Shown piece by piece: positions 1,514-30,350 of a stretch of DNA of 32,450 nt (the first letter of the stretch is position 1; the number at the start of each line of letters is the position of its first letter). Origin of the DNA: Rhizaria sp. SCN 62-66 (lineage: Eukaryota); assembly GCA_001724265.1 (NCBI GenBank), contig MEDY01000070.1, forward strand, positions 62,001-94,450, read 5' to 3'. Both the position numbers and the translations under genes were made by a program. Below the pieces are notes generated by a model that was given only the letters and a program-made list of their open reading frames with translations, was not told the DNA's origin and made no database searches.

Positions 1514-4500
1514 TTACTTCTTGTTCCCTTTCGTAGCATTCTTGTTCTCATCGCTGTCATAAGTGTTGCGGTTCGTAGGTGAAACATAGCGGAGTCCCAG
1601 TGCCACAAACACGTCCCGCTCCTCACGCACAAACACAGCTTTCCCCTTGGACACGGCGACACGTTTCTCGCGGTGCGCGGGTCGCAGCGCCGAATCAGAC
1701 AGCGACCAGCCCTTGAGGTGCGCAAGGTGGCGCATGGAACGGTTGAAGTAGTCCGAGCCCGTGAAATACAGCAGCGCGCACGGGAAGTGCGGCGCAGCGT
1801 AGAACTTGAGATCCAGTCGTCGGTTCACGCCTGACGCCTGCGGGTGCCACGGTGGCAACCGGCAGAAACCCATCCAAGTCGTGTCCTTACTGTCATCGGC
1901 GTCACTGGGCAGCATCCACAGCGGCGGCAGCTCCTCGGCGGCGCTCTTGTCGCCGGCAGCGCTCGAGTTGCTGGGGCTGAATCCAAACCGCGGGCTGTTG
2001 CCGGAAAGCGACTGCGACAGTGAAAATGAACGTGTCAGACGTTCGGCTTCGGCGCTCTCGGTCGCGCCTGCCCACATCGCCGCAGTATCTTCGCGGCTGC
2101 AGTTGTGTTTCTCCTTCTGCTCTCCCTTTGTCGAAGCGGTGGTAGCAGCAGCTCTGTTGGCCGCAATGAGCGCCCGCGCGCGCGCAACAGCGGCGGCAGT
2201 GCACGTTCGATGTGGGTCCGGAAAAGCGCCTTGTAGCGCTGCAGTAACCCACGGCATCGCCTCGATCCATTCACCGGCACTCCCATCTACATTGCGCTGA
2301 GCGATGGCTGATGCAGACTCTGCTACAGCAAGAATGCCATTACACTGTGCGCACCTGCCAGCGTCATCGTCACCGGTAGCCGCAGCGGTAGTCGCAGCGG
2401 CCAGAGCAGCAGGGCGGCGCGGCAGCGAGTTCGCAGACACAGCGTCCCCAAATGGCGAACTTGGAGTCAGCTTCACATCGGGCGCAATGGCAGTGAGCGC
2501 GTCGGGCCACTGTGCGCGCGCGTCATACGCCAACGCTGCGGCGATATCAGCAGCGCATGCTACAGAGGAGTTTGCATATGCAGGGGCATTGTCACTGCCT
2601 TTACGCTCAAAGTGCAGCGATACACCCTTACCTGCCGCCCAGCGTGCCCCCACCTGCGCTTTGCGCTCTGCAGTCGCGGCGGCAGCAGCAGCCGCAGCGG
2701 CAGCACCATTCGGATTGTTCTGGCAGCGGCAGCGACGACAGTCTGGCGCGGGCGGTGTGTTGGTGGCCTGTAGCAGCCAGAGTGTGGCTGTAAGGCAGCG
2801 CGCGCGCTTCGCCTCACCCTCAGGGCCGTCACCCCAGTCTGGCGACGTGACGAGCACGTCACAGTCGCCCGAGCTTTGCTTGCCACGACGGTAAGACCCG
2901 CAGCAAACGACGACGGCGCGCGGACACAGTGCGCGCACGCACTGGCGCACGCGCTCGACAATAGCCGCAACCTCTGCGCGCGGGATGCGCAACACTTTGT
3001 CGTCAGCCATCGCCAGGCCAACCGTCTGCGACGGCGCAAGCAGCTGGCTCGGCCGCGGGAAGTGCTGCATGTCCAGCGACAGCGGCGGCGCGTGCAGAAC
3101 GTAGTCAACTTCGACGTTGTAAAAACGCACGCCCCGATCAACCTTGACGTCGGGGTCCTTTGCTGCTACAGACGCCATGGCGGCCAGCGTGGTGACCGCA
3201 GCCGCGTTTGCTTGAGCGACGGCTGCTGCGGCCACGGAGGACACAGGGGAGACTGTAAGAGGAAGAAACTCGGCCACAGCAGGCGAAAAAGGAGTTAGTC
3301 CAACATTGCGACGTTCCTTAGTCACTGTGTTCCGCGTCGGGGCACCGAAGTCAGTAATCTCCAGATCACTGCCACTGTCGTCGCGAGCCACATAACCGCG
3401 TCGGACAGGCTGCACCATTTGGGTATTAGGAGCAGCAAAATTGCGCTTTAGTCCGCGGCTAGCTGTGTTCGCATCAGAAGCCTCAACAGCAGCAGCAGTA
3501 GTCGTACCGTCGTTGACAGCCATGACGCCGCTGGCACGGACCTTTGCCCACCGCGCGAGTGCGAACGGCGCGTGCCAGTCGAGCAGACGCGCGTAGGCCT
3601 CGTACTGTGCGTGCGTCACCATGCCGACGCCGACGACCACGCCGCTGCCCACGGTCACTCTGCTGCTCTCCGCAGCAGCAGAAGCGTCGCCGTGGATGAA
3701 TGAGATCACGTCGCGTCGACTGCCTTTAAGTCCAGGCAAGAGATCCCCCGCCACCGCAGACCGCATTGCGGCAGCGTTCGCCGCGGCTTTCAAACTGGCC
3801 CGATCACCACTGCCCTCGATAGGAATATTCCCACGCCCGTGCTGCTTCTTGACCTTGGCATCGGACTCGTGCTTGCCGCCGGATTGCCAGGCCGGCGGCT
3901 TCTGCCGGCCGCGGTTGAGACCGGCCTCGGACTCAGTCTTGCCCGCCTCCCCCAAGCGTACGCACTCGCGCTGGCTGCGCGAAACAGCGAGGCGAAGCTT
4001 GGCGATCGTGTCCAGACCGGCCGCGACAAGCCGGCTCGCGGTGGCCGGCCCCACGCCATGCACGCCGGCGTCGAGCTCCTTCATCGCGTTCCGGTGCGGG
4101 TCCGCCTCGCGCGCCGCCGCTTTGGAGCTGAAGCCCTTAACTAGGATCTCCTTGAGAGTCGACGCAATGCTGGGCCCAAACCCAGACACGCGCGCTCGCA
4201 GCGCGTCAATCGCGGCTTCAGAATCGATGGGGAAAAGCATCCGACGCAGCTTACGGGCGGCGTTCTGGTAGTTACGCGCGCGGTACTGGTTCGCTGGGTC
4301 AGAACGGTCTGAAGCAGCTATCGCGTGCAACAGCTCGAGCACCTCGCGCATCCTCTTGCTTAAGTCCGGAGCGCTCTCTTGCGTCCTAGGGGGAAACCAG
4401 TCCTGCTCGTTAGTCGGATACTGTATCACTGCGTTGTTGTTGTCCTTGTTGTTGTTGTTGCTGTTGTTGCTGCTGGTGGTGGTGTTGTTTTTGTCCTCAC

Positions 4501-6658
4501 TGTCAGCGTTAGGATCTGGTTCATCGACAAAGATCTCATCACCCTCGCCTCCGACGCGAGCATCGTCTCCGTCGTGAGCAGCTGCCGCGGCTCCATTGCC
4601 AGTCAGACTGTTGCTCTCGCTCTCCTGCCCAAACCCGTGCATGCTCATGTCATGTTCACCCAGTCGCTGGGGAAAAGTGACAGTCTCGTTCATGGCCTGC
4701 GTTGACGTCACAGGCATCAGCGGCGCAGCGTACGAGTATCCCATCGGACACCAAGGCCGGCTGACTCCGTCACTCCCCACGGCGCATTTGCGGCTATAGT
4801 GGGGGATTTCAGCGCCGACCTGGCACGCAAGCACCGTCACGAAACGCCGCTCCTGCGCGGCACGTTTGCGCCGGTCGTGCTCACGGTCGCTCACGCGTTC
4901 CGCAAAGGCGCCGGTTTGCGGCGGTAGAGTACTGCTCGCGGTGGGGGCCGCGCGCACGCGTTCAGCGGGTTCGGCGCTGCTGCCGCCAGTGGTCCTGAAC
5001 TTGCTGTTAAGGTAGTACTCGTCGTTGTCTGGCGGGCTGCGCGAGGACATGTCAACGCACGTGCCGAGGGGCAAGTGCAGCAGCGGGTTGAAGAGCAACA
5101 TCGGCAGCACGAATGCCGCGGCCTCCGCCTCACCGACCGCGGTTGCAGCCTCACCGTCGTCATCCCATTTCCAGACGTTGCAGTAATTGTCATCAGCGTC
5201 GGCGTCAACGGCAACCGCAACTGCAGCGTTCTCACGGGCGCCATCCTTGCAGTCCGCCAGCTTGATCTTCGCGGTGGACGTGACGAGAGGTGCTGGACGC
5301 CTCGGAAGAGGACTCAACGCAGACCCAGCCCTCGAGAGCGGCTCCAGCGCAGGCGGCATCAACTCCGAGTCCTCCCGTTGCAGATTCTCAGCGCGATCGT
5401 CAAAGGCGCAGTCCAGGTGCTGAAACTGCAGCGGCTGTTGTTGACCGTAAGATCGAGCCTCGTGCGCGGAGAGATTCGCAGAGCGCTGTGGCTGCGGTAA
5501 TTGCGGCTAGCAGAGCTGTGACTGCGGCAGTGCCGACTGCGAAAGCCCGTGCGACAGCGACATCGTGTCCGCGTCAAACGACGACGGCAGCGGCTCCGGC
5601 TCCGTCTCGCCAGCGCGACCGCTGGCGGCGCTCGCACCGCTGTCCGTGTCCCCATCGCGCATGACCGCGTTTCTGTCATTCATACGCTCATTCACAGTTG
5701 CGCGTGCGTCGCTAGCGCCAGAGTCCGAGTCCGAGCCGTTAAACATACCGTCGAGGTTGTCGTCGTGAGAGTGGTTTGTCGCAGTTGCGCCCACGGTCGT
5801 CGCAGCGGATACCGCCGGCGTCTTTGCTGTTGCACTGGATGTTTGCGGTTGTGTAGCCGCCACAGGCTCCGTCTTAACGCGCCTCTCTGCAGCCACCGTC
5901 GGCAGCACAGTTGCGGGAACAGGCGGCCGCACTGGCAAAGATCCTGAAGGCGTCTGCTCAAGTGCTGATTGCGGGCCACTGCTGCTGCTGCTGCTACTGC
6001 CGCTGGGGCTGTGGCTGGGACTACTAGCAGCGCCCGTGCGAGAACCGCTGGAGTTTACCACAGCGGCCCCATCGCCGTGCCCATCGCCGCGCCGCGGGAT
6101 GCACGCGTTCGCGACCTCGCGCGAGATTAGCACGGGCACGTTGACCGTCACCCACTGAGTGCGATCCGTGCCGTCCCGACTCGTCTTGGCGGCAGGGACG
6201 GCTGCGCCGGCGGCGAGGAGCCTCTGCGCCTCCGCGAGGTTGCAGATGCGTGCGGCGTGCGTGATCTCGAGCGAGCGCGCCTCCGCGGCCGCGATGACGA
6301 AGTCAGGCGTCAGGTAGCGGCAGTGTTGCACGCTGCGGGCACGCCAGAGCTTCAGCTTGCTTTCGATCGCCTGCGCGGCTGCGATGTCCTTCGCGGGCTT
6401 GTGCGCAGCCTCCAGCGCTGCGTGCGTGTGGTCGGGGGAGAAGACGACGTGTGTGACAGTGTTGCTCATAATCTTGGCGACTCTGCCGCCGCCGCGAGTG
6501 ATCTTCTACCTCAACCCCTCCGCCTTCCTCTCAGGCAGGCCCAGTGACTCCACTATAAGAAACTCACAGCCCGCAAACACCTCGCCAGCGGACACCCTAG
6601 GCGGGAAGCCCGGGGCCGGAGCTGCGTTTGGAGACGGTTGCGTCTGGGACGGCTGCAT
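1514..6658 (-). CDS. Family X DNA polymerase, Pol lambda-like (BRCT + 8-kDa/HhH + fingers + palm + thumb), about 1714 aa when two in-frame TAGs are read as sense
   Basis: Track ORFs 6506-6736, 5507-6469 and 1514-5362 share one frame, separated only by TAG at 6506-6508 and 5507-5509. First ATG at 6658. BRCT: VFAGCEFLIV...LR*KITRGGGRVAKIMSNTVTHVVF. HhH motifs SGFGPSIA and VHGVGPATA. Catalytic motifs GSYRRGKQSSGDCDVLVT and RRLDLK. ALLYFTGSDYFNRSMR. Thumb EERDVFVALGLRYVSPTNR. Ends in TAA. Confidence 0.92.
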
Positions 6659-7067
6659 TGTGCCCAACGTGTGGTGGGTCAAGCAAGCTCTTAAGAGTGG
6701 AGGCAACGCTATAAAACGGAGGAGAAAATCCGGCAAAACGAAAGTTTCAGAATGTTATATTTTGATAAAATGATTAAGCTAATGTTTAATATACAATATC
6801 TGGCGTATGACTTATTTAACGATTGGTTAAACGCAGATTTGATGGAATCGTTATCAATGGTTGCTGTGTCAAAGGCGGGCAGCGGGGCACCGAGACGAAA
6901 CGCCAGCGCGCCTGCCATATTTTGCTTCGAAATCTCGCAACCAAGTGACCGTTGGGACACATGCCAGTTTATGTCTTCACTTTTTCTGATATGATTTTTA
7001 TTATATTTTGATTGTACTTTACAGACCTACGAAGAACTTCCGCAACACCTCCAGTCGTAAACATACG

Positions 7068-12836: not shown

Positions 12837-14579
12837 TCACTTCTGCTGCTCGGAAGCCAGCCCCATGCCCCGCATCAGCCCCAGCAGCTCCTTTTGACTG
12901 CCCCCGCTCGCCACACCGCCGCCCGCCGTCGCATTGTTCACCGCCGGAGCGTAGTTGCCGGCGGCGGGCCCAGCGCCCACAGTCGCCAGCTGCGGCAGCG
13001 GGGCCCGGCGCGCGCGCGCCCGCGCGACGCTGCCCGTGCTGGCCAGCGACGGCGCGGGCGCGTCGAACCCATTCCCGCTGCCGCCGAAACCGCTGCTGAT
13101 GCCGATGCCGCTGACACTGTCGCCGGCGGCGTTGCCGTTGCCGTAACCGTAGCCATAGCTATATCCATGGCTCGGACTGAGGCCATACGCGTCAACAGAC
13201 TGAAGCTGTTGCGGGGCATAAGGCTGACTGTACCCTGCGGTCTGACCGTGACTGTGCAATGTACTGAGGCTGTGGCTATGGCTGTGGGCAGCGGTCGCAA
13301 AGCGTGCAACACGAAGTGGTCGCTGATCTCCAGCGCTCGACTCAAACGCAACAGAATTCGACGAGCTCGCACCACTATAAGCGCCCACAGCACTTTTATT
13401 GTTGCTGCTGATGTTGTTGTTGTTATTGCTTGCAGCTGCGAGCCGACGTGCCGCGCCCCAGTCCTCGTCCTCATCCTCGTCTTCATAGTCATTGCTGTTG
13501 CCTGTCACCGACGGCGCAGCAGCAGCAGCGGCAGACGCGCCAGTTGCCGCCGCGCTGATGTCATCAACTTCATCGTCCTCGTCCTCGTTGTACAGCCTCG
13601 GCAACAGCTGACTCTGATTCTGGCTCTGCATCTGCACTCTCGCGCCCTTACTGGAACCAGCGGCTTCGCTGTACGCGTTGGCGCTGGCGGCGCGTGGGTC
13701 GCCGCGGCCCTCTTCATTCTTACCATCATCGCCGACCACAAATCCCCCTTCACCGCCAGCGCCAGTGCCTGCGCCTGCGCCGGCCTCGGCCTCTGTCTCG
13801 GCCTCGGCCTTGGCGGCGGCGGCCTCGCGGCGGCGGCGACGTTCGGCCAGCGCACCACCGCCAACGCCACCGCTGGCCTCTGCAACTCCCGTGGAGGTCG
13901 CTGAGGGCGCGGAGACAGAGCCCTCGGAGCTGCCCAGCCGCATCGCCAGCGGCAGCAACGGGGACGCGTCGACCCCGCCACTTTGCGCTGCTGCCGCCGC
14001 CCCCGCAGCATCAGTGGCAGCTGCTGCAGCAGCAGCAGCAGCGTTGGCGCCGAAAGCAGCGGAGGTGGCCGGTGCGGTCGTAGGTGTGACGAGGACCGAG
14101 TCCGTGGCACTATCGTAGTACACAAACACGTCCTCTTCGTCCTCCTGGTTGCGGTCGCCCGTTGTGCGGCTGCCAATGATGCTGTTGCTGCTGTGGGGAT
14201 TGACGGCGATATCGCTGTCGCCACCACGCGCCCTGCGGCCCGGCACGCGTACCGCAGGCGTACTAGGCCCCGCAGGCGGGAGCAACGCGCCCGTCAGAGC
14301 CGCGACGTACGCCGTGTCGCCCGCTGGCAGGACGGTTGGCCCGTATACCCCGCGCCCGCGCAGAGCACACGGCACGCCGGTGAGCGCGAAACACGACCCT
14401 GCCGTCAGCCACGACTCTGCGCCGTCGCCGCTACCGCCGCTGCCGCAGTGTGTGCCGGTGGCGATGCTCGCAACGTCGGCAGCGTCGGCCGCGGCGTTGG
14501 CGTTGGCGACAGCGTCCGCGGCCGCCGCGCTCGCGATCGCAGCAATGTCCCCGCACACGCACGCGCACTGCTGCTGGTG

Positions 14580-14634
<55 letters not shown>

Positions 14635-17600
14635 ACGCCGCCGCCGCCGCCGCCGCCGCTTTGCGCGGTCGATGAGCCCGAGTCGGCAACGAGCGGCAAC
14701 TCCAGTGGGTGCCGCTGCGGATGCGGGCGAGTGAAGATCTGCATCGGCGCCTGGCCAAAGTGCTGGATCTGCGTGCGCAGCGCCTGTCGCTAGCTGCGGC
14801 TCGGCACTGCAGTCAAATCTACCGCGCCCTCGTAGACGACGCTGACGTAGGCGTTGTCCGCGGCCACGGCGGCCGGCCCGCGCTGCTTGGCGCCGAACGT
14901 CAGGTCGATCCAGTGGTGCAGCCGCGCGGAGACGTACTCGCTCTCGAGGGCGGCGCGGAGCACGCAGACGACTTCTTCGGGGCTAGCGGCCCACGACGGC
15001 AGCGCCACTGCGCCGACTCTCGCGCCCACAGACACGCCCACAGCACTGCCACTGCCGCTGCCGCTGCCGCTGCCCCTGCTCCGGCCCTGGCTCTGGCTAT
15101 GGCCGTGGCTGTGGCCGTGGCTGCTATGGCTGTTGGAGTCTGGTTGGAGACGACCGGGCGCGAGCGCGGAAGGGTTGCGCAAGAGCTGCGGAAACGAGTA
15201 CATCTCCGGCACTAACTCGCGGCCGGATCCGGAGCTGAGCAGACAGCTCTCCCACAGCCTCGGCAGCGAGGAGAAAAGCCTGTCCGGGCAGTCAAGGCGG
15301 CCGGCCTGGAGCTCGGCGTGGAGCGAGGTGAAGGGCTCCAGCCGCAGCAGCAGGTGCAGCACCGACGCCGGCGAGCTGTAGAAGGAGCCGAAGTGGAAGG
15401 GCGCGCTCGTGTAGTCAGCCGCCGCCGCAGCAGTCGCAGTCTTCGCCGTCGCTGCGCCAACCGAAGGCGCTGCGCTTGCCGCGGTGGCGAAGGCGGCGGA
15501 GAGCGCGGCGGAGGACATCGAGTGGCGCATGCCCGCGTTGGCTCCCGCCGCAATCGCGGAAGCAGGCAATGTGCGCGCCGCGGAGGGCGACGGAGCAGTT
15601 GCCGTGCCGTTAGTGCCGTTGCCGCCGTAAGTTGCACTGTTAAAACCGCCGCCGCCTCCAGTGGTGGACATCGAGACTCCGCGCGCTCGACCGGCGCCGA
15701 CGCGGAGCCCGGCGTCAGGCAGCAGCGACGTCGCCGACACTGCGGAGCCCGCGACTGATCCAGCGCCAGCAGGGGCCGCGGGGGCCGCGGATGGGCTGTG
15801 CGCCGCGGCGGCCGCAGCGGCCTCGGCGAGGCTCTCGAAGCGCGCGCGCGCCGCGGCCCTGCGCGACGGCACGAGCGCGCCGACGGGCCTGCTGAGGTCG
15901 CGCATGATCGCGGGCAGCAGCGGGTGGGCGTCTGACGAGGCGAGAATCAACAGCAGGTCGCGCGCAGTCAGCCAGCGCACACGCTCGCGCCGGTCTGAGC
16001 TCTCGTCTCCCGTCGCGGGCGGCGCGGCAGGGAAGTGCGCCAACGTCCAAGGAAAGATCATGTACTGGCCGAGGTCGTTGTAGCCGCGGCCGGCGACGGT
16101 GTTGAGGCAGATCAAGTACTGCCAGGTGGAGATCTCGCGCCGCGCCCACCGTGCGGTCACGCCGGAGCGCAAAAGCAGGTCCAGGGGCGACCGCGAGCAG
16201 TGTGCGAGCAGACGTGGCGGCCGCAGAGGCAGGAAACAGCGCAGAAACGCGTTGCGCGCGGCTGTATCGGCGAACGCGAAGAAGAACGCGCGACTCAACT
16301 CACCGGCGTTGCTGGAACTCGTGACCGTGGAACTCGTGCCCGTACGAGAACTCATGACCCCACCGGCACTGGGTGCCCGGCCTTGAGAGGCTGCGTTGGT
16401 GACCGTGGGCGCAGGGAAGTCGGCGAAGACCTCAACTGCAGACCGCTGGAGTAAGTACAAGCGGCGGTACACTGCGCGCACGCAGCCGAGGGGGATTGAG
16501 AATCCCCACTGCAGCGGTTGTTGATCACTGTCCACGTCATCAACACCTGCGTCAACACCGCCAACGCCAGCGCCAGAGCCAGCGCCAGTGACAGCGTTCA
16601 TAGCGCCAGCACCAGCAAGGAGGAGTGAGGCAGCGGCGGCCAACGGTGTGCCGGCGCGTATGGCGTCCAGCAAAGGGCTCTTATACGGGCCCGGCAGACG
16701 CGCGCGCGCTCCGGCGCCGGCACGCGCCCGCGGCCGCGCCCCACGGTCACCAGCCATGGCCACGACGCCACCGCCGCCGCCGCCGCTGCTGCTGCCGAAG
16801 CTGCTGCTCGAGGCGTCAAGCGCAGAGGCAGAGGCCGAAAAGCTGCCGCTACCGTTGGCGCTGCCGCTGAGGTTGAAGCTGCTGCCGCTGGTGCCAAGGC
16901 TGCCGGTGAAGCTGCTGCTCGGACCCAGCCCCGCGCCCGCAGCGAAGCAGCTCTCGTCCTCCGCATCGCCCTTACCGCCGCCGGCGCTGATATTGCCAGT
17001 GCGTAGCGGGTGGAGGAGCTGTGGCGGGAGAGCGGGCGCGTACGGTGCAACGGGGTCGATGCACGCCACGGCGCTGCGAGCAACGCGTGCCAAAGCGGCG
17101 GTGGTTGCAGCGGCCACGGCGGCGTCCGTCGCAGCGTCAACAGCTGCCACAGTATCAGTCGCCGGGTCAAGGTTTGGCGGCGACCCGATGTGTTCAAACT
17201 CGCTGTCGACAGTCGACATCGCTGTTGCATTATTTGCAGTCTTTACATTCTTTGCATTCTTTGCGGCGGCTCTATCCCTCGCTTTGGCGACGAGGGCGGC
17301 CAACGAGGCAGCGTACTCGTCCCAAACCCACTTTGCGTCATCCACACCACTGCTGCTGCCGCCGCCGCTTCTCTTCGCCGCAGCCGCAGCCTCCGAGCCG
17401 CTCGCCACACTGGCGCTCGCTACACCGGCGCTGGCAGTGGCGGCACTGGCCGCGGCGGCGATCACATTCGCGGCGAACGCAAGCGCCGGGTCTGACCCCG
17501 GTGCGCCCGCGAGCGCCGCCGCCACCGCAGTCGCCACCGCCTCGTCAGCCTCTGCAATCGCGCCCAGGGCCGTGGTTGCCGCCATGACGACGGCGTCCGG

Positions 17601-19323
17601 GTCGGCGTGGAAAGTTAAGCCGCCGCGGGAGAGAGTGAGCGCGCCCGGCGTCGGTCCCAGGGGCGTCACCAGCGTCGCAGGCGCGGAGAACAGCGGCGCG
17701 GCGTGGAAAATAGCGGTCGTAGCAGAAGCACCGTTCGTGGTGTTTGCAGCGGGGCCAGAGAGGGCGGGCGGGAGGGACCAGGCGGCGCCGAACGGGAGAC
17801 AAGCGGCGCGCGCGCGGTCCGGGAGCTCATAGGGCGACACGGCGGGGCGCGCGGCAGCGGCGGCCAGCGCGGCACGCGCGGGCGCGAAGGTAAGGAGCGA
17901 GGGGAACGACGGGCCTGCGTGGGTGGACCCAGTCGTGGAGCCAGTCGCAGAGCCGGTCGCAGAGCCTGCCGCAGAGCCAATGGCGGAGCCTGCGATTGAG
18001 CCAGCGGGGGTGACGGCTCCTCCTGACGCGATGCTAGGACCAATGCCGGCGCCAGCAGCAACAGAGCCAGTGTAAGGGCCTGGGTTAGGGTAAGGGTAAG
18101 GGCCCGAGGCGGCGGAGGTCGGCGTCAACGCGGCCAGAGGCGAGTGCGAGTGCCTGTATCCAACGCCAACGCCAGCGCCCGCGCCAGCACTCGCGCCAGC
18201 AACACCAGCAGCTGGATTGGAGCCCGAGGTCATGAGTTCCCCGTCGGGAGCCGCGAGGACTGGCGCGGCGCCGGTGACCGAGGCGCGGTGACGCGCGTGC
18301 GGAGGCGGCCGCGACTGCAGCAGAATCTCGGACGCCGACGGCAACGGAGGCTGCTGCTGAGACTGCGAGAGCGCACTGTGTGCCTGCGACTGCGGGGGTG
18401 CAGAGTAATGGTCAGCGAGAATGCTCGGCACGGCGAAAACGCGCGTGATCCCCGTGTTCTCCAGCATCAGCGACTGCGACCGCATCGCCTGCGCGCGGAG
18501 CGACTGCGGCTGCGCGTGCGTCTGCGGCTGTGCCGGCGACTGCGAGAGAGCGCCGGCGAGCCCTGCCCCTGCGCTGGCCCCGGGGCCGGGTGCAGAGGAG
18601 CCCAGCAGCACCGGCGCCGGCGGCAGCGCAGACCCTGCCCCTACCGCTACCACACCCCCACCGGCGCTGACGCTGGCAGTGCGATTGCCCACAGCGCCAA
18701 CACCACCCCCCATAGCGCCAACACCACCCATCGCACCGCCGCCGCCGCCGGTGGCGTTCGTGGGGGAGACGAGGGGGCTGTGCAGACGCGGGCTCTGGCC
18801 GCCGCTGCCGCCGCTGCCGTAGCCGTAGCCGTACTGCGTGTACGCACTGTACAGCCCATAGCTTGAAAAATTTGCATGGCTTGCGTTGTTTGTGGCGTTG
18901 TGCGGCACCGAGAGAGGCGACGGCGGCGCCGGAGAATGGCCGTAGCCGCCGAGCGCGGGCTGCGGGTGCGCGAGCGCGAGCGCGAGCACGCGCCCCGGGG
19001 ACTGCGGCTGCGCCTGCAGCGAGTGAGAGTGTGGCAGCGGGGGGCCAGACGCCGCGGCGGCGGCGGGGGCGGCGGCAGGTCCGTAGCGCGGGCCGGCGCC
19101 GCCGTTGCTGCTGCTCACACTCGCGGGGCCATACCCGCCGTAGCCGCCCCCGAGACCACCGACGCCAAGACTGAGACTGGGGCCTGCAGCGGAGGCGGAG
19201 GCGGAGGCGGAGAACGAGGGGTGCGGGCCGGCAAAGGGGCTAGCGCCGGGGCTGGGGCCCTGGGAGGCTGGCAGCACGCGCGGCGCGGCCCCCGCACCGC
19301 CTGGACTCGCAGCGCCGCCACCA

Positions 19324-19360
<37 letters not shown>

Positions 19361-19454
19361 AGGAGCCAGCAGCAGCCGCAGCAGCGGTCGGCTGCGGGGG
19401 CAGGGCGGCGCTGTGTGCGCGTTGGCGGGTGCCGCCGCCCGGGGGCATGTTCAT
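12837..19454 (-). CDS. PH-BEACH domain protein (neurobeachin/LYST/FAN superfamily), about 2205 aa when the in-frame TAG at 14790-14792 is read as sense; start uncertain
   Basis: PH-BEACH motifs VYRRLYLLQRSAVEVF and AFFFAF. BEACH motifs TARWARREISTWQYLICLNTVAGRGYNDLGQYMIFPW, RDLSRPVGAL, PFHFGSFYSS, RELVPEMY, LESEYVSARLHHWIDLTFG and YEGAVDLTAVPSRS*RQALRTQIQHFGQAPMQIFTRPHPQR. Track ORFs 14790-19493 and 12837-14744 are the same frame. First in-frame ATG at 19454. Ends in TGA. Confidence 0.92.
14568..14633 (-). repeat. (CAG)n microsatellite encoding Q18-H-Q3, preceded by a (GGC)n poly-Gly run
   Basis: Direct read of the ctg repeats on the + strand, inside the BEACH CDS. Confidence 0.95.
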
Positions 19455-20191
19455 GGACCACAAGTGAGCGCTAATGCTGCTGTCTGTGGCCAAAGGCGCG
19501 CAACAGGGACGCCTTGGAGTGGGATGAGAGGGGAGTCTGCAGTGTGAGACGGTGTTAAAGGAGGGACAGGAAATGGAAGGTTAGAGCGCCACAGAAAGAT
19601 AAAATGAAGTGAACACGGCCGTTTTATAGTTTTGCAAAAACAATCGCAATAAATATGGCGCTACTGGCGATCATGGTTCTTCAGACGACAAATTGATTTG
19701 TTGTTGCTTGTCAACACCGCCCGTTGGTCGCCGGCTTGGCGCGACCGTGAGCAGGGCCGAACGAACATTTTCCGAGACCTTTATTATCGTTTTCAGTCGT
19801 AATCAGCACATCTCAGTACCGCCAGTAAAAACAAGCGCCATTTTCCCACATAATTTCTTTATTACGTTCCATTTTTCTCACGGTACGCATGGCTATTTCG
19901 TATTTTTTGTACAGCGTCGACTGCCTCTCCCGAAGCAGCGAACACTCCTTGTTAAAGCTTCTGTCCTGCCACAGTTCCCAGTGTCCTGGCTTTTCAGAGG
20001 GGGAAACCCCCAGTATCCTTTCGTTATCTTCCTGTTACCTGCCGCGTGCAGCTTACAGGCTGTCCGTGCTCGTGCTGTGACCTCTTTTAGCAGGCCTCAG
20101 CAGCGCACTTTTTCTTCTCCCGGATCCCGATCTCGCCAGCTCACGAGGCACCGCTCCAGGCTTCTCAAAGCCACATAGCCTTCGTCTGCCG

Positions 20192-23100
20192 ATGCAGCCG
20201 GCCCCGGACCCTTACGCGGGCGACCCTGACGAAGCCATCACCCTCGATACATACTCGCAACGCCTCGTACGTGCCTGCCCCACCGCGACAATCTTCGCAA
20301 GCTTGCCGCGCATTTCTATATCTGGATCCATCACATGCTTTTGCTTAACCAATAAGCACGAACTCTGACATTCCATGTTTCTTACCCGCTTGGCTTTGCT
20401 ATCGGCTCTTTAACACATCATGTTCCTTCAATCCCATCATCACGCTGCCTCCCGCTCACTTCCGCCCGCTCTTATCTCTCCCCCTGCGCCTTTTCTCGCC
20501 CACACAGGCGCGCGACGCGATCAAGGCGCGCTGCCTGGAGTCCCTCGAGGAGTTTCACTCGTGCACCTACGCCCAGGGTTACATCACGCAGCCCGTGTTT
20601 GTCTGCCTCACCTGTCAAGCCGCCTCAGACGCCGCTAAGCGCGCCAAGTAGCGCGCCTACAGCTCCAGCACGGCTTCGTCGCCGCCGTCCTCATCATCGT
20701 CCTTAGGCGGCAGTGGCACTGGCGCTGCGAGCGCGGGCGCGGGCGCGGGGAGCGTGGGGAGTGTAGAAGGCACTGAGGAGGACGACTACTCGACTGCGTT
20801 CGGTTTCTGCCTCGGCTGCTCCACCAACTGTCACCTGGGCCACGACGTCGTCGAGCTTGGTGACCGCACTCTCTTCCGATGCGACTGCGGCAACTCGCGC
20901 TGCCCACAATCGCTTCCGGCGCATCTCCTCCCTGTCGCAGCAACTGGCGCCGACACTACTGAATCATCATCATCACCATCATCATCCTTGTCGTTGTGTG
21001 ACTCGGAGTCGGCGCTGAGGCCGTTCACATGTCAGCTGCAGCCGCACAAGGCCGCGCTCAACGACGCCAACGCGTACAACCACAACTTTCGCGGCCTCTT
21101 CTGCCGCTGCCGCCAGCGGTACGATGCCTCGCGCAGCATGCGCGGCTGCATTCGTTGCCAGGACTACTTCCACGACGACTGCGTGCGCCTGCCGCCGCCG
21201 CCGCTCTCGCTCGACGCGCTGCCGCCCGCGCTGCGCCGTTTGCTTCACCGCCCCGCCGTCGCCGCCCGCGGTAAAGCCGCCAAAGAAGCGGCCGCTGCCG
21301 CCGCAGCAGCCGCAGTTGCTGCAGCGGGCGGGACTGAAGCCGTCTTGACAGAGGGCGGCGCCGCAAGCAAAGCCGCTGCGTTGCCAATGGACGACGTCGG
21401 CAGCCTCGCAGAAGAGGTTAAGTCCGAGTCGAAATCCGACGTCTACGCCGGCATCGAAGTCTTGGATGCCGACACCAACACCGCTGCGGCCGCGCCGATG
21501 AGCGAGGCCGAGGCCGCCGCCGCCGCCGCCGAAGCCGACGCCGCGGCGGCGGACCTGCTGGCGGTGCTCGTGGGGCGCGTGTGGCAGGACTACTCCGACG
21601 GCGAGGCCCACGTGTTCCTGTGCGCCGAGTGCGCGGTCGCGGCGCCGCTGCTTGCGTCCTACGCGCTGGCCAACCCGCCGCTGCTGGCCGAGGCCGTGGG
21701 CGGGTGTTCTCGCGTGTACCTCCAGCGTACCCGCCTGCTCGAGGCGCTCATGGACCCGCGTGTCGACATCTCGGGCGCCCAGCTGCAGCAGTTGCCGCCC
21801 GCGGTGGTGACCGGGCGCAAGGCCATCCACCGACGCCACGCCGCGCGCGCGGCCAATGCGGCGGCGCTCGCGGCGGCGAGGGCGCAAGAAGCGGCCGCCT
21901 CTGCTGCCTCTGCTGCCGCGAACACAACAGCTTCGGTGTCTAGCACAGCGACTGAGGCTGAGAACGAGACTGCTGTGACAGCGCCCGCGCCCGCCCTCAC
22001 GGTCGCCCCTAGCGCGCACTCGGTGTCCGGCGACGGCGCCGCCGCGACCGCTGCCAAAGCCGCCCACGCCGCCTCTGTCGTCGCCGCCGGCGCCGGCAGC
22101 GGCAGCAGCAGCAGCAGCAGTGTGCGCGTGGCGCGCTCCCGGGGCGACGCGGGCGCTGAGGCGGGCCACCGCAGCCGCCGCAGCCGCCTCCTGGACGGCG
22201 GGGACCAAGACCAAGACCAGGCCCTGCGGCTCAACCACACCCACACGCGCAGTAGTGACGGCAGCGGCAACGGCAGCAGCAGCGACGGTGAGGACGGCGA
22301 GGACGAAAGCGGAGACTCTTCTGCGGCGATCAGCCCAACTAACGCGCCGAGCGCCGGCGTCACTGCCGCAGACGACGAAGACGAGGACGATGATGAAGAG
22401 GAAGGCGAGGCTTTGCTGGTGCGGCTGCCGGCGCCGCGGCCGCCCAACGGCAGCGGTAACGGCAACGGCACCAGCCACGGCGACTGGAACTGGGCAGCGC
22501 TGCGCTGTTCAGACTGTCCACCCGACGGCGACGGCGACGGCGATTGTGACGGCGATGGGTCAGGTTCGCCCTGCACGCCCGTCACCTCGGCCGCCGCCGT
22601 GGCCGCCGCAGCGGCCGCCGCCGTGGCCGCTGGCGGAGGCCCGCTCGCCGCCTCCGCCGCCGCAGCAGGCGCAGCGTCGCCCCACACGATGCGGTGCGCG
22701 CTGCACGCGCGCGCGCACACGGGACCCTGCGATAATGATGACGACAACTACCACTGCCAGCTCGTCGCGCACTGCCTCACGTGCCCCATGCTGACGCCGA
22801 GCAACTGCACGCTGTCCGTCTGCTCCGCATGCGCGGTGCGCCACGCTGAGCCCATCTACCAGGAAGTGTGTCTCGTGTGCGCGCTCACGTGCCATCGCGG
22901 CCACTTGCTCGTGAACTGGCGCGTCGACGGCGCGTATTGCGACTGCGGGACGGTCGACGGGTCGCGGTGTCTTGTCGGCGAGGTCGATGACGTTACCACG
23001 ACGCCCGCGCCCGTCTCCCCCGCGTACGCGTCCTGTTGCGGCTCCTGCTGCTGCTCCTGCCCGCGTCCGGACAAAACCTCCCCTCAGTCTCAGCCTCATC

Positions 23101-25874
23101 AGCAGCCTCAGCAGCAACAAGGTACGCTCTCGTCGTCTGCGTTTACCTCAGCTCCTTCAGCGTCATCAACATCCGCCCCTGAGACCGTATCATCCTCATC
23201 CGACGCTGATGCTGCTGCTGCTGTTTCTAGCACTGCGACTATAGTTGTTGCTGGCCACGGTGCAGAGGGCCACCGCGCGTGCACCGCCTACCCCGCGGGT
23301 CCGTACTTCTGCCGCGGCACTGCCGTCTCTGCGCTGCCGCTGCCGCAGGATCGCTGCATGCGTCCGCCGCCGCTGCCGCCGCTTGCCGCGCTGGCCGCCG
23401 CGCGCATCGCCTCCTCGGGCTGCACCGCCATCGACCCCCAGCCTTTCCCCGCCACCGCTACCGCCACAGCCACAGCCGGCGGGGCGGCCACGGCCGGTGG
23501 GGCGCCGGGCGCAAGCGCTGCGTCTCCGGCTGCGGCTGCGGGTGGGTTCGACCTGCCGCTCTGTACTGCGTGGCGCCGCCGGCTGTGCATGTGCGCGCGC
23601 TGTCTCCCCGAGCTCACCGCGGCTGGCCTCGCGCCCGCGCTCCGCGAGCCCGAGACGAGCGCGATTGCGGCCAAGCTGCGCGCTGTGGACGAAGTGCTCG
23701 ACAGCGACATCGACTTCAACAACGTTCCCGTCGCCGTCGTCGCGGAGGCTGTCGCGCGCGGGCTGCACAGGATCACCGCCGCGGCCCCCCTCGCAGGACT
23801 TATCCCAGTCTCCGCCACTGCCACAGCTGCCAACGCCTACGCCACAACAGCGGCGGCGGCGGTGGCGACGGCGACGACGACGTCCGCCGCGCGTGGCGCG
23901 ACGAGCACCGCGCACGGCGACGCAGTCAGGGTCGCCGGCACGAGCCCAGGCGACAGCAGCAGCAGCGGCAGCAGCGGCAACGGTGGTGGCGGTGGTGGCG
24001 GTGGCGGCGGTGGCGGCGGTGGCGTGCCGAGCCAAGTCGTCAGCGACGCTGTGCGCACTGCGATGGACCTCATCTCCGCCGCCACGAACGCTGCCGCGTC
24101 GCTCAACGGCACGCCGCCGACGCACCCGTCCGCGGGCACCGCGCTCTTCACGCCAGCGGCAGCCATCGCCACAGCGCCGCCCCAGGTCTCCTCCACGCAC
24201 GCCGGTGTGTCCGCAATGTCCGCGCCCACAGCTGCGACTGGGATCGCGAACGCAGTGTCGGCGAACGCTGTGTCTGCGGTGGCGATCCCGCAGCGTGTCC
24301 CGGCGCCCAGCCCCGCGCCGCCCGTCGTTGCCGCCGCCAGCCTCGGTCTGCGCCCACTGTCTCCGCAAAACTCGGGGTCTAGCTCTAGTTCTAGTTCTGG
24401 CTCTGGATCTGCATCTGGATCTTGCTCTGGTGTCGGCCTCTCGGCGGCACAGGCGCAGTCGATGCTGCAGTCGCAGTCTTTGCCGATGCCGCTGCGTCGC
24501 GTGGGCGTGCTCGCCTCGGCCTCGGCGGCCAACGCGGCGCTCAGCCCCGCGCTCGCGCTCGCGGCGCGCCACCTCTCCCTTGCAGGAACCACCGGTACCA
24601 CGGGTGTCCCGAGTACCGGCGCGGGTCCCTTGGGTACCGGCGCGCTGTTGTCGTCGGTCTCCGCGCTGTCAGCGTTGAATCGCGGCACCACGGTGTCGCT
24701 CGCGCCCGTGGCTGCCGCCGTCGCCGCCGCCGCAGCCACGACGATCCCGCCCTTCAACTCACAGCAGCTGCAGTCTGCGCAGGCCGCACGGTCGGTGGCC
24801 TCGGCCACAACAGCGGCGGCGGCGTCGGCGGCGGCGGCCCGTCAGTCGCGCGCGGCGTGTATCGTACAGACGCGGCCACCACTCAACTTGCTCTGGACGC
24901 CGCAACAGCTGCAGGCCGCGCCCGCGCCCGCGCCGCTGCTCTTTGCGGAGGCCGCGGCGGCGCTGGTGGACCGCTCGAAGCGTGCCGCCGCCGTCGCCGC
25001 CGCGCGCGCCGCCGTCTCGGCCTCCGCGCCCGTGTCGCCCTCCACAGCGGCAGCATCAGCAGCAGCGACGGCGGCGTCAGGTGAAGAGCGTTTTGTCTCG
25101 TACGGCGAGGCTAGCAGCGCGATCGCCGCGGCGTTGCAGCCCCCAGCGCCGCATTCTGTTGCGGCCTCGTCAGTCATATCGCTGCTTAACTCGGCCACAA
25201 GCACCTCGAGCAACACAGTGAGCAGCGCAGCCGCGAACAGCGCTGCGCTGACGTACGCGCCCGGCCGCTCTTCCGAGGCCGCGCAAGCGCGCGCGCAGAA
25301 CCACAAGTGGAAGCGCCACCCTGCCGGCGCCGGCATCGGCGGCGACGGGCTGTCGCGTCTCGGCGACGTGCTTGCACGCCAGTCACGGCACCGCGCCACC
25401 GCCGCGCACGCCGCCGTTGGCGTTCCTCTTGCGCCACACTCGCAGCAACAGCAGCACTATAATCACCACCAGATGGCGCAAGACCAGTCGGAGCAACTGT
25501 CGTCGTCATCGTCGTCGTCGATGTCGAACCTGCACGCGAACAGTGGCGCTGGCGCTGGCTCTGGTGCTGGCTTACCCGCTTCTCTGCTGGGCCTCGCATT
25601 CGCCGGCAGCAACAGCAGCAGCAATAGCGGCAACAGCAGCGGTGGCGGCGGTGTGGAAGCGATGGTCGAGCTCTACTCGCGCGTGTTCACCGCCGTCGTC
25701 GCCGAGGAGCTTTCCCGCGCGAGCGCTGAGCTCGGCCCCGGAGCCGTAATGACGAAGGCCATGATGGAGGCCGTGCTTGCCCGCGCCGGCGAGCGGCTGC
25801 GCGAGCTCAAACGCGCCCACGCGCAGGCGCTGGACGACGCGCAACACGACGTTGAGGACCCTTCATACTAGTAA
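20192..25874 (+). CDS. UBR7: UBR7/Mlo2-like E3 ubiquitin ligase (UBR box + PHD + extra UBR-like box), 2 exons (20192-20266, 20508-25874), about 1813 aa with TAG read as sense
   Basis: Exon 1 MQPAPDPYAGDPDEAITLDTYSQRL. Exon 2 has CTYAQGYITQPVFVCLTC...AKRAK*RAY...FGFCLGCSTNCHLGHDVVELGDRTLFRCDCGNSRC (UBR7-type UBR box), NAYNHNFRGLFCRCRQRY...CIRCQDYFHDDC...FLCAEC (PHD), and WRRRLCMCARC plus a C-terminal helical segment typical of UBR7. Internal TAG at 20649-20651. Ends TAC TAG TAA. Confidence 0.88.
20267..20507 (+). other. Spliceosomal intron (241 nt, GT-AG, phase 0)
   Basis: CTC|GTACGT ... pyrimidine tract ... CACACAG|GCG. Joins the ATG exon in frame to the UBR-box exon. Confidence 0.8.
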
Positions 25875-27689: not shown

Positions 27690-28193
27690 GGTCTACGGAA
27701 GGCATAGCGAAACACCGATCCAAGAATAGACAGACCTCATGAGCGACTTTCAGCGTTCATTTTTAAAGGAATATAAGATTAAACAAGTTATAGTCAGAAG
27801 TCTTAAAAACAACTCGAAGAACTAATCGCTTGTGTCAAGGATCAGTAAGATCTCAAAGCTATTTTGTTCGTGGTGAGTTCACATGTTCGGGCTTGTTCCC
27901 ACAACGAGCTTGTGGCGCCAATTTGTTGACCAAATTTCTGACTGTTGCAATCGTCATCTGAAAATGATAGCCAAGCTGTGATAGGATTGTGATGTGAAAC
28001 ATATGAATTTCACTATGAAATATTGAACAGGGGAGGCTGTATATCACCCGTCTTCAATGAACGGGCCGCCTCGCTCACTCTCTCAATTCAAATCTTGCAT
28101 CCTCTTTCCCCGTTTATCCCAGACCCCTTCTAGCACTTTTCCAAGACAAGATCGAAGCAAAGGAGACCACATACATTATTGTTTCTCATAACA

Positions 28194-29434: not shown

Positions 29435-29436
29435 CA

Positions 29437-29517
29437 TGCGGACGAGGGGGTTCGAACCCCTGCGTCGTGAGACATCGCGGCTTGAATGCGACCTAGTAAC
29501 CACTTTAGTACATCCGC
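29437..29517 (-). tRNA. tRNA-Leu(CAA), 81 nt, intronless, long variable arm, atypical D stem
   Basis: GCGGATG TA CTA AAGTGGTTAC TAG G TCGCA TTCAAGC CGCGA TGTCTCACGACGC AGGGG TTCGAAC CCCCT CGTCCGC A. 7-bp acceptor stem, perfect T arm, CAA anticodon with G37, class II variable hairpin, A73 discriminator. Confidence 0.88.
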
Positions 29518-30350
29518 AGTTTCTCAGCGTAACAAAAGTTCCTGAATCTGCGTCTCAGGGCGAAATTTAAATTATAATTATTTGTATGATATTTTTGGCA
29601 CTTTATGTTTTTCTTTTGATTCTCACCAACTTTGAACAACACAAATTTTTGTCAACCCAATAAGATTCTTGGACGTGTGTTTCTGTACACATAGCAGCAG
29701 AGCAAACTGAACAAGGTGGTAGTTACTAGTGTAAGTCGTAATAGTGGCGGCCTCGAGGGAGGTGAGACTCCGGACTTGCGGAAATGGCAAAGCTTATTGT
29801 GTACTACAGTAGTACGTAACCTTATTTTGTTAAGGTATTTGCAATGACAAGCTACGTGTTAATATGTCGCAGTTTTTAATATGCTATGACTATGTTATCG
29901 GCGACCACGCGCTCGAAGTTGCGAGTCCCTTGAATGGGGACGATGCGCCTCTATGAGCGAACTGACGTGGTTGTTACGCCTCACAATCTACACACAAGCT
30001 TTAAAAAACACTAGCAATGGTGTATTTAAGCTGTATTTCTTTTGTATTTTCTATTACATCTTCATTTTCTCTTTTAAATGTGCCTCTTGGTTGCCAACAG
30101 AAGGCTGCCTTCGCAAGGCATCCCTCTGGGCCTCGTTTTAGCGCAAAGTACAGTATGTACATGTATGAATACCGACTCCCTGCTTATCACCACCCACCTT
30201 TACTTTTCATGATTTAATTTCTCTTCCACTTCTATTTGTTATTTTGAACGCGCCTCTGGGCTGGCACACTGGCTGTATTATTACCCTTCGCGTGTTTCGC
30301 TTCCCCCGTTCTTCATCATAATCCTTCAACAAAGGTTGACACGCGTCGCA

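Follow-up and report, generated by a model that had tools for sequence, protein, structure and literature searches.

Only a handful of lineages are known to treat UAG and UAA differently in their nuclear code (PMC11687900). UAG alone is read as Gln in Iotanema spirale, in two phyllopharyngean ciliates (Hartmannula sinica and Trochilia petrani; PMC11687900) and in Protocruzia tuzeti, and the rhizarian exLh assigns it to Leu (PMC5304391). In Iotanema, where UAA and UGA are stops, the proposed cause is the T32G substitution in eRF1, Thr32 being the residue that bonds the G of UAG (PMC5304391, PMC9161772); T32A is lethal in yeast and lowers release at both UAA and UAG in vitro. In yeast, too, Gln is incorporated at premature stop codons when the surroundings are rich in Gln; near-cognate tRNA-Gln(CUG) reads UAG there, and a U28:A42 pair favours the readthrough (bioRxiv 2023.06.19.543857; PMC13192750).

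Here we describe a 32,450 nt stretch of the genome of Rhizaria sp. SCN 62-66 (contig MEDY01000070.1, positions 62,001 to 94,450), hereafter the window and the host, together with a wider sample of the same genome. As far as can be read from DNA, the host matches the Iotanema-type code in three features: internal UAG, apparent UAA and UGA stops, and a change at Thr32. In both organisms UAG alone appears to be affected, Gln is its likeliest meaning, and Thr32 of the eRF1 GTS motif is substituted, by Gly in Iotanema and by Ser in the host. They differ in that UAG accounts for 0.37% of Gln-type codons in the host and about 8% in Iotanema; in addition, conserved-Gln columns are mixed in the host, which these data do not place among the fornicates. 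Hartmannula and Trochilia resemble the host in a UAG-only change with no suppressor tRNA found in their assemblies, but they use UAG in 78-91% of genes, whereas the host has about one TAG per 30 kb in a GC-rich genome with GT-AG introns of 100-300 nt. The exLh lineage is likewise a long-branch protist with a UAG-only change, but it retains Thr32, and Leu falls about 18 bits below Gln at ten host sites. Yeast shows Gln at UAG without a cognate tRNA, as proposed for the host, and shares with it the U28:A42 pair and the favourable Gln context; its readthrough, however, amounts to a few per cent, with UAG still a normal stop, whereas the host has lost UAG from gene ends and has an altered eRF1. 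In the literature searched, which covered few subscription journals, we found neither T32S nor a UAG-only code described for any GC-rich protist from wastewater.

A polymerase gene open only under TAG readthrough

The window contains a 1,740-codon frame (Table 1) that carries two TAG codons, closes on TAA and needs readthrough of TAG to stay open; its first ATG is at 6658. The best PDB match of the product is Pol lambda (E 6e-31). The BRCT match upstream of the linker TAG (residues 52-114) is weak, with an E value of 9e-4 that is marginally short of the Pfam cut-off; downstream, the HhH, palm and thumb domains are intact, and the coding model prefers this frame on either side of the linker TAG.

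Table 1. Positions of the polymerase frame, its repeat and the TAG codons of the window
Feature	Position	Strand	Remarks
DNA polymerase X (lambda-like) ORF	1514..6736	-	Matches to BRCT, HHH_8, fingers, palm and thumb
Degenerate three-unit Gln/Pro repeat, LPQSQ / LC*PQ / LPQPQ	5486..5530	-	Linker between BRCT and catalytic domains
Linker in-frame TAG	5507..5509	-	Codon 410 counted from TTG, 384 counted from ATG
Second in-frame TAG of the PolX ORF	6506..6508	-	Within BRCT domain; K/E/Q score above S/W/L/Y in its column
In-frame TAG of ORF 19493-12837	14790..14792	-	Within BEACH domain; Q=E best in Pfam column
In-frame TAG of Cys-rich ORF 20595-25874	20649..20651	+	Near start of ORF; coding status less certain
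TAG TAA tandem ending ORF 20595-25874	25869..25874	+	Sole clean TAG end sampled; TAA immediately after

The initial annotation read the minus strand from 5530 to 5486 as a three-unit repeat in which TAG is in register with the CAG of both flanking units. The letters are exact and the register is confirmed, and its caution that this is one site in a low-complexity linker agrees with the Gln/Pro linker of the polymerase frame. The repeat is loose, the outer units sharing 12 of 15 bases and the TAG unit matching each neighbour at only 7 of 15, and among residues of the training ORFs with Gln at -5 and +5, four to six Gln nearby and non-Gln neighbours (n=96), 19% are Gln. The annotation had further concluded that the repeat identifies TAG as Gln and that the codon behaves as a synonymous CAG>TAG change. 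Gln is indeed the likeliest residue and an origin from CAG is upheld, but the repeat shows origin and not meaning, because no other single step yields TAG as often as CAG to TAG does, whatever TAG means; nor does TAG behave as a free synonym, with 25 occurrences against 5,562 of CAG. The linker TAG is most likely one Gln-read site among rare internal UAGs.

An intron acceptor at this TAG is unlikely: the sole donor-like in-frame GT found would give an 'intron' of 306 nt and 64% GC. The 80 bases upstream of the TAG are 65% GC and 23% T, whereas seven real TAG acceptors are preceded by DNA of 23-41% GC and 42-49% T, and this GC-rich, T-poor composition is why the site is not considered intron-like.

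Some of these codons recur in other sequencing runs. The second polymerase TAG is identical in a run X4 contig covering 6027-6821, as is the BEACH TAG in a run X8 contig covering 14761-15037, both runs being from other studies. Runs X5, X6 and X8 cover the window in short pieces only, and among the contig pieces listed from four runs none spans the linker TAG exactly. No strain difference falls at any TAG among the 40 of 160 entries listed. The Cys-rich ORF has no Pfam match; by eye we take it to be UBR-box-like. A further window TAG, at 28131, is upstream of the likely ATG of a B9 protein and was left uncounted.

Almost no sampled gene ends with TAG

The host genome comprises 34.9 Mb in 714 contigs, from which a non-random sample of 813 kb (about 2.3%) was fetched, and a codon-phase model was trained on 118 long ORFs in that sample. 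Stops flanked by coding-like DNA on both sides number 25 TAG, 5 TGA and 1 TAA at the loosest cut-off and 9 TAG with no TGA or TAA at the strictest. In the TGA and TAA cases the downstream frame is short or the score is marginal, and the lone TAA is itself marginal and looks terminal. Of 183 long frames that scored well, clean ends were assigned to 82 (48 TAA, 32 TGA and 2 TAG); removal of the second TAG end, a borderline case whose frame stays open for 40 codons more, leaves TAG at 1 of 81, and that one is the tandem of Table 1. One AG-rich end, in L121, is ambiguous. Coding goes on past 22 TAG, no TAA and a single, intronic TGA, and 78 of the 183 frames are intronic or unclear, including seven with TAG; the test for UAA excludes frames flagged in family searches for TAA or TGA only. 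Rough rates drawn from strain differences predict that about 66% of new stops would be TAG, and with that share the finding that all 22 continuing stops are TAG has P ~1e-4 under mutation supply alone. A genome-wide hand count of K/HDEL motifs followed by a stop, taken from 77 matches to a wider pattern, gives 13 TAA, 22 TGA and 1 TAG, the frame having been checked for TAG matches only; all four TAG matches among the 77 are non-coding or out of frame.

On these counts TAG is very probably read through in this genome, and UAG has probably been abandoned as a stop in the nuclear code, with UAA and UGA ending genes. Under a standard code the internal TAGs would instead be nonsense alleles, pseudogenes or assembly errors. 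Their great rarity fits that explanation, as do the share of new stops supplied by CAG to TAG and the five TGA and one TAA that pass the loosest threshold. Yet gene ends are nearly without TAG, domains are intact downstream of internal TAGs, contigs from runs X4 and X8 have the TAGs at 6508 and 14792 as well, and the TAG in eRF1 (see below) repeats in a second contig, which may share its source. We regard a standard code as very improbable and as largely refuted already.

A TGA in contig C70 near 11160 (minus strand) lies between coding-like DNA, with 221 codons before it and 40 after; it probably does end the gene, with a 3' flank that resembles coding sequence.

TAG within exons of conserved genes

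TAGs within exons are found in eRF1, five kinases, a UBC protein, SUV3, two UCH proteins, the BEACH and BRCT domains and a ubiquitin domain. Searches with the ABC, DHC_N2 and WD40 families yielded no TAG. Many other flags were dropped as intron acceptors, namely those in kinesin, DEAD, two dynein, myosin, SNF2 and one Helicase_C match, in HSP90 and in four of nine kinases; another Helicase_C flag lies within an intron. Acceptor sites that close in-frame introns do account for the four kinase flags, the HSP90 flag and seven of eleven other family flags, with an eighth intronic. The 25 in-exon TAGs, however, lack the T-rich, low-GC upstream DNA typical of real acceptors, and alignments pass ungapped through the TAG in eRF1, NEK, CaMK and ubiquitin. 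As a general explanation of the TAGs, such splice sites, or removal by RNA editing, form the least probable account that we considered, with very little chance of being right.

An altered release factor with its own TAG

A single eRF1 gene was found (L053, G000:C63:101870-105199), and the remaining PF03463 matches resemble pelota by eye. The GTS motif of the product is GSS (T32S), whereas 117 of 117 homologues keep Thr32, the closest relative (84% identity) among them. Further substitutions are G57S, T58K and K130Q, of which T58K is also present in standard-code ciliates and is non-diagnostic. By analogy with the known role of Thr32, T32S would make the factor less able to recognise the G at the third position of UAG.

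An in-frame TAG lies in the second exon of this gene as well, at residue 107. The same TAG recurs in the L172 contig in identical DNA, possibly from a common source; a metagenome scan for relatives returned, besides L172, matches of no more than 69% identity. The homologous column is Glu in 106 of the 117 homologues, Asp in 10 and Val in one; since the Val belongs to the closest relative, this position appears to be relaxed in the host lineage. With a TAG at residue 107 of its own release factor, the host must read UAG through to a substantial extent.

Which residue is encoded

Ten in-domain TAGs were scored against Pfam with seven candidate residues, giving summed bits of 905.8 for Glu, 903.7 for Gln, 903.6 for Lys, 896.5 for Ser, 886.3 for Tyr, 886.0 for Leu and 884.1 for Trp. 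Judged from these columns, the encoded residue is polar. The initial annotation had favoured Gln over Leu, Glu or Trp and had offered as a refutation TAG columns dominated by Leu, Glu, Tyr or Trp. Its preference over Leu and Trp holds, both being about 18 bits down, and Tyr is rejected too, but Glu scores 2 bits above Gln, and Gln, Glu and Lys are inseparable at the ten Pfam sites. All the domain sites examined are variable columns: no TAG lies at an invariant Gln column among them, or at an invariant Glu or Lys in the five in-exon kinase sites. Individual alignments are mixed. NEK1 has Gln at the aligned TAG column, and host ubiquitin has CAG where a paralogue alike at 63 of 72 residues carries TAG; in SUV3 the aligned residue is Asp (human) or else Ser, the two PDB relatives both have Leu at the BEACH site, and paralogous kinases have Thr and Asp at TAG sites.

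The contexts of the 25 TAGs resemble those of CAG. Gln frequency around the 25 TAGs is 0.167, compared with 0.18-0.20 around Gln codons and 0.02-0.045 around other codons, whereas Glu frequency is at background (0.027, versus 0.08-0.09 around Glu codons). Naive-Bayes context log-likelihoods are 0 for Gln, -12.7 for His, -28.8 for Leu, -44.8 for Lys and -52.3 for Glu; as proof of Gln this margin is overstated, as it ignores mutation supply, and a supply-only model and the Gln context model are about 1 log-likelihood unit apart. Models were fitted to 40 sites, ten of which were hand-picked from domain hits and the window, so that their composition is biased. They disfavour strongly constrained Glu (P 0.003-0.013) and Lys (P ~0.035), do not reject mutation supply alone (P 0.14-0.22) and are compatible with Gln; a free fit gives AAG a share of 0.35 of TAG origins. 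Occurrence of TAG within polyQ, proposed at the outset as a check, was seen in three of 12 pattern matches examined, which were selected partly for CAA content, but the raw count of 33 matches is not evidence by itself, the other nine comprising six poly-Ser, one poly-Ala and two non-coding cases. TAG also interrupts coding polyQ in L121, L088 and C12.

UAG might alternatively encode Glu or Lys, the Gln-rich contexts then coming only from linkers that tolerate mutation of CAG to TAG. The Pfam sums, the Glu-dominated eRF1 column and the Asp at the SUV3 site are in keeping with this reading, but TAGs are not enriched in Glu neighbours, the fits tell against constrained Glu or Lys, the closest relative has Val at the eRF1 site, and none of the five in-exon kinase sites is an invariant Glu or Lys; we consider this unlikely. 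Gln is favoured also because of precedent, from the known UAG-only Gln codes and Gln insertion in yeast, and we put the probability that internal TAG is decoded mostly as Gln, on this sequence evidence, at roughly 0.65.

Codon usage and a candidate decoder

TAG represents 25 of 6,737 Gln-type codons, and its ratio to CAG is some 40 times lower than that of TTG to CTG (0.19); a codon so under-used is either newly available or selected against. No tRNA with a CUA anticodon was recovered in an Rfam search in which 63 of 506 candidates were scored (30 loci, and one representative of each remaining score group, being read) from an assembly that may be incomplete, in a DNA search with tRNA-Gln(CUG), or with two patterns run genome-wide, which between them picked up 22 of 26 isoacceptor types in a control. 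Relaxed ARAGORN 'CUA' calls proved to be noise. The gene for tRNA-Gln(CUG) is present in five copies with U28:A42, a 28:42 pair that is common in standard-code ciliates too and is not specific to recoded species. A tRNA-Leu(CAA) at 29436-29518 (minus strand), one base away from a CUA anticodon, is ordinary and unchanged.

In the likeliest scenario the rare internal UAGs arise mostly by CAG to TAG transitions. Because no CUA tRNA was found, we propose the five-copy tRNA-Gln(CUG) as decoder, which would read UAG through a first-position G-U mismatch, a step to which we would give about even odds; an unassembled CUA tRNA is the alternative. Inefficient decoding would probably hold TAG some 40-fold rarer than a free synonym. 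More speculatively, eRF1 could regulate itself, more release factor truncating its own message more often and so setting the level of readthrough. Taken together, the disappearance of UAG from ends, a recent T32S, decoding by tRNA-Gln(CUG) without a cognate tRNA and feedback through the eRF1 TAG could represent an early codon capture, which we offer tentatively as a possibility with the odds against it.

UAG could also be unassigned and leaky, a weakened eRF1 allowing near-cognate Gln, Lys and Tyr tRNAs to insert a mixture, with some termination, and TAG being kept at tolerant polar sites. The failure to find a CUA tRNA with patterns that recover most isoacceptor types is consistent with such leakiness, as are the under-use of TAG, its confinement to variable columns within domains and the survival of the mutation-supply model, and the presence of UPF1 would make truncation costly. 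The early TAG in the single eRF1 gene found nevertheless calls for substantial readthrough, and Tyr as sole residue is rejected by about 17 bits. We judge a leaky, unassigned UAG to be unlikely, if marginally less so than Glu or Lys.

If decoding as Gln is correct, the host would be a further Thr32 case beside Iotanema and would support Thr32 as a UAG switch. At 0.4% of Gln codons and with no cognate tRNA, it would also provide a rare look at a stage between stop and settled sense codon. This intermediate stage is where codon-capture and ambiguous-intermediate models part. Standard-code annotation truncates host genes, such as those for eRF1 and the polymerase described here. Host DNA recurs in bioreactor and wastewater runs, and material may therefore be obtainable.

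Affinity of the host and other genome features

There is only a hint of cercozoan or sainouroid affinity. Val at positions 34 and 38 of eRF1, as in Guttulinopsis vulgaris, is a weak sainouroid resemblance, and HSP90 matches are at most 70% identical; matches to ubiquitin gave no guidance on placement. Host ubiquitin (L204, L207, L208) is divergent, with best named matches 84-87% identical, and has two extra residues ahead of the usual start, perhaps an echo of the insertion at the rhizarian junction; the assembly yielded no head-to-tail polyubiquitin junction. The 18S rRNA gene, very divergent by eye, spans 4.4 kb (L061 1501-5945, G000:C706) and contains several inserts resembling group I introns, one of which includes a His-Cys homing endonuclease ORF (L061 2140-2637).

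Among other features, we note that a single ORF (L206 1-1200, G000:C681:2400-3600) places a ubiquitin domain, like host ubiquitin at 63 of 72 residues and without the terminal Gly-Gly, immediately ahead of a fused Peptidase_S74 phage tail-fibre chaperone domain. Ala/Ser/Gly-rich insertions hugely expand several genes (1514-6736, 12837-19493 and 20595-25874 in the window, and G000:C1 25717-59295), and the PolX domains are dispersed over 1,700 residues. The G000:C1 frame is open for 11,193 codons, with 317 Gln codons and zero TAG.
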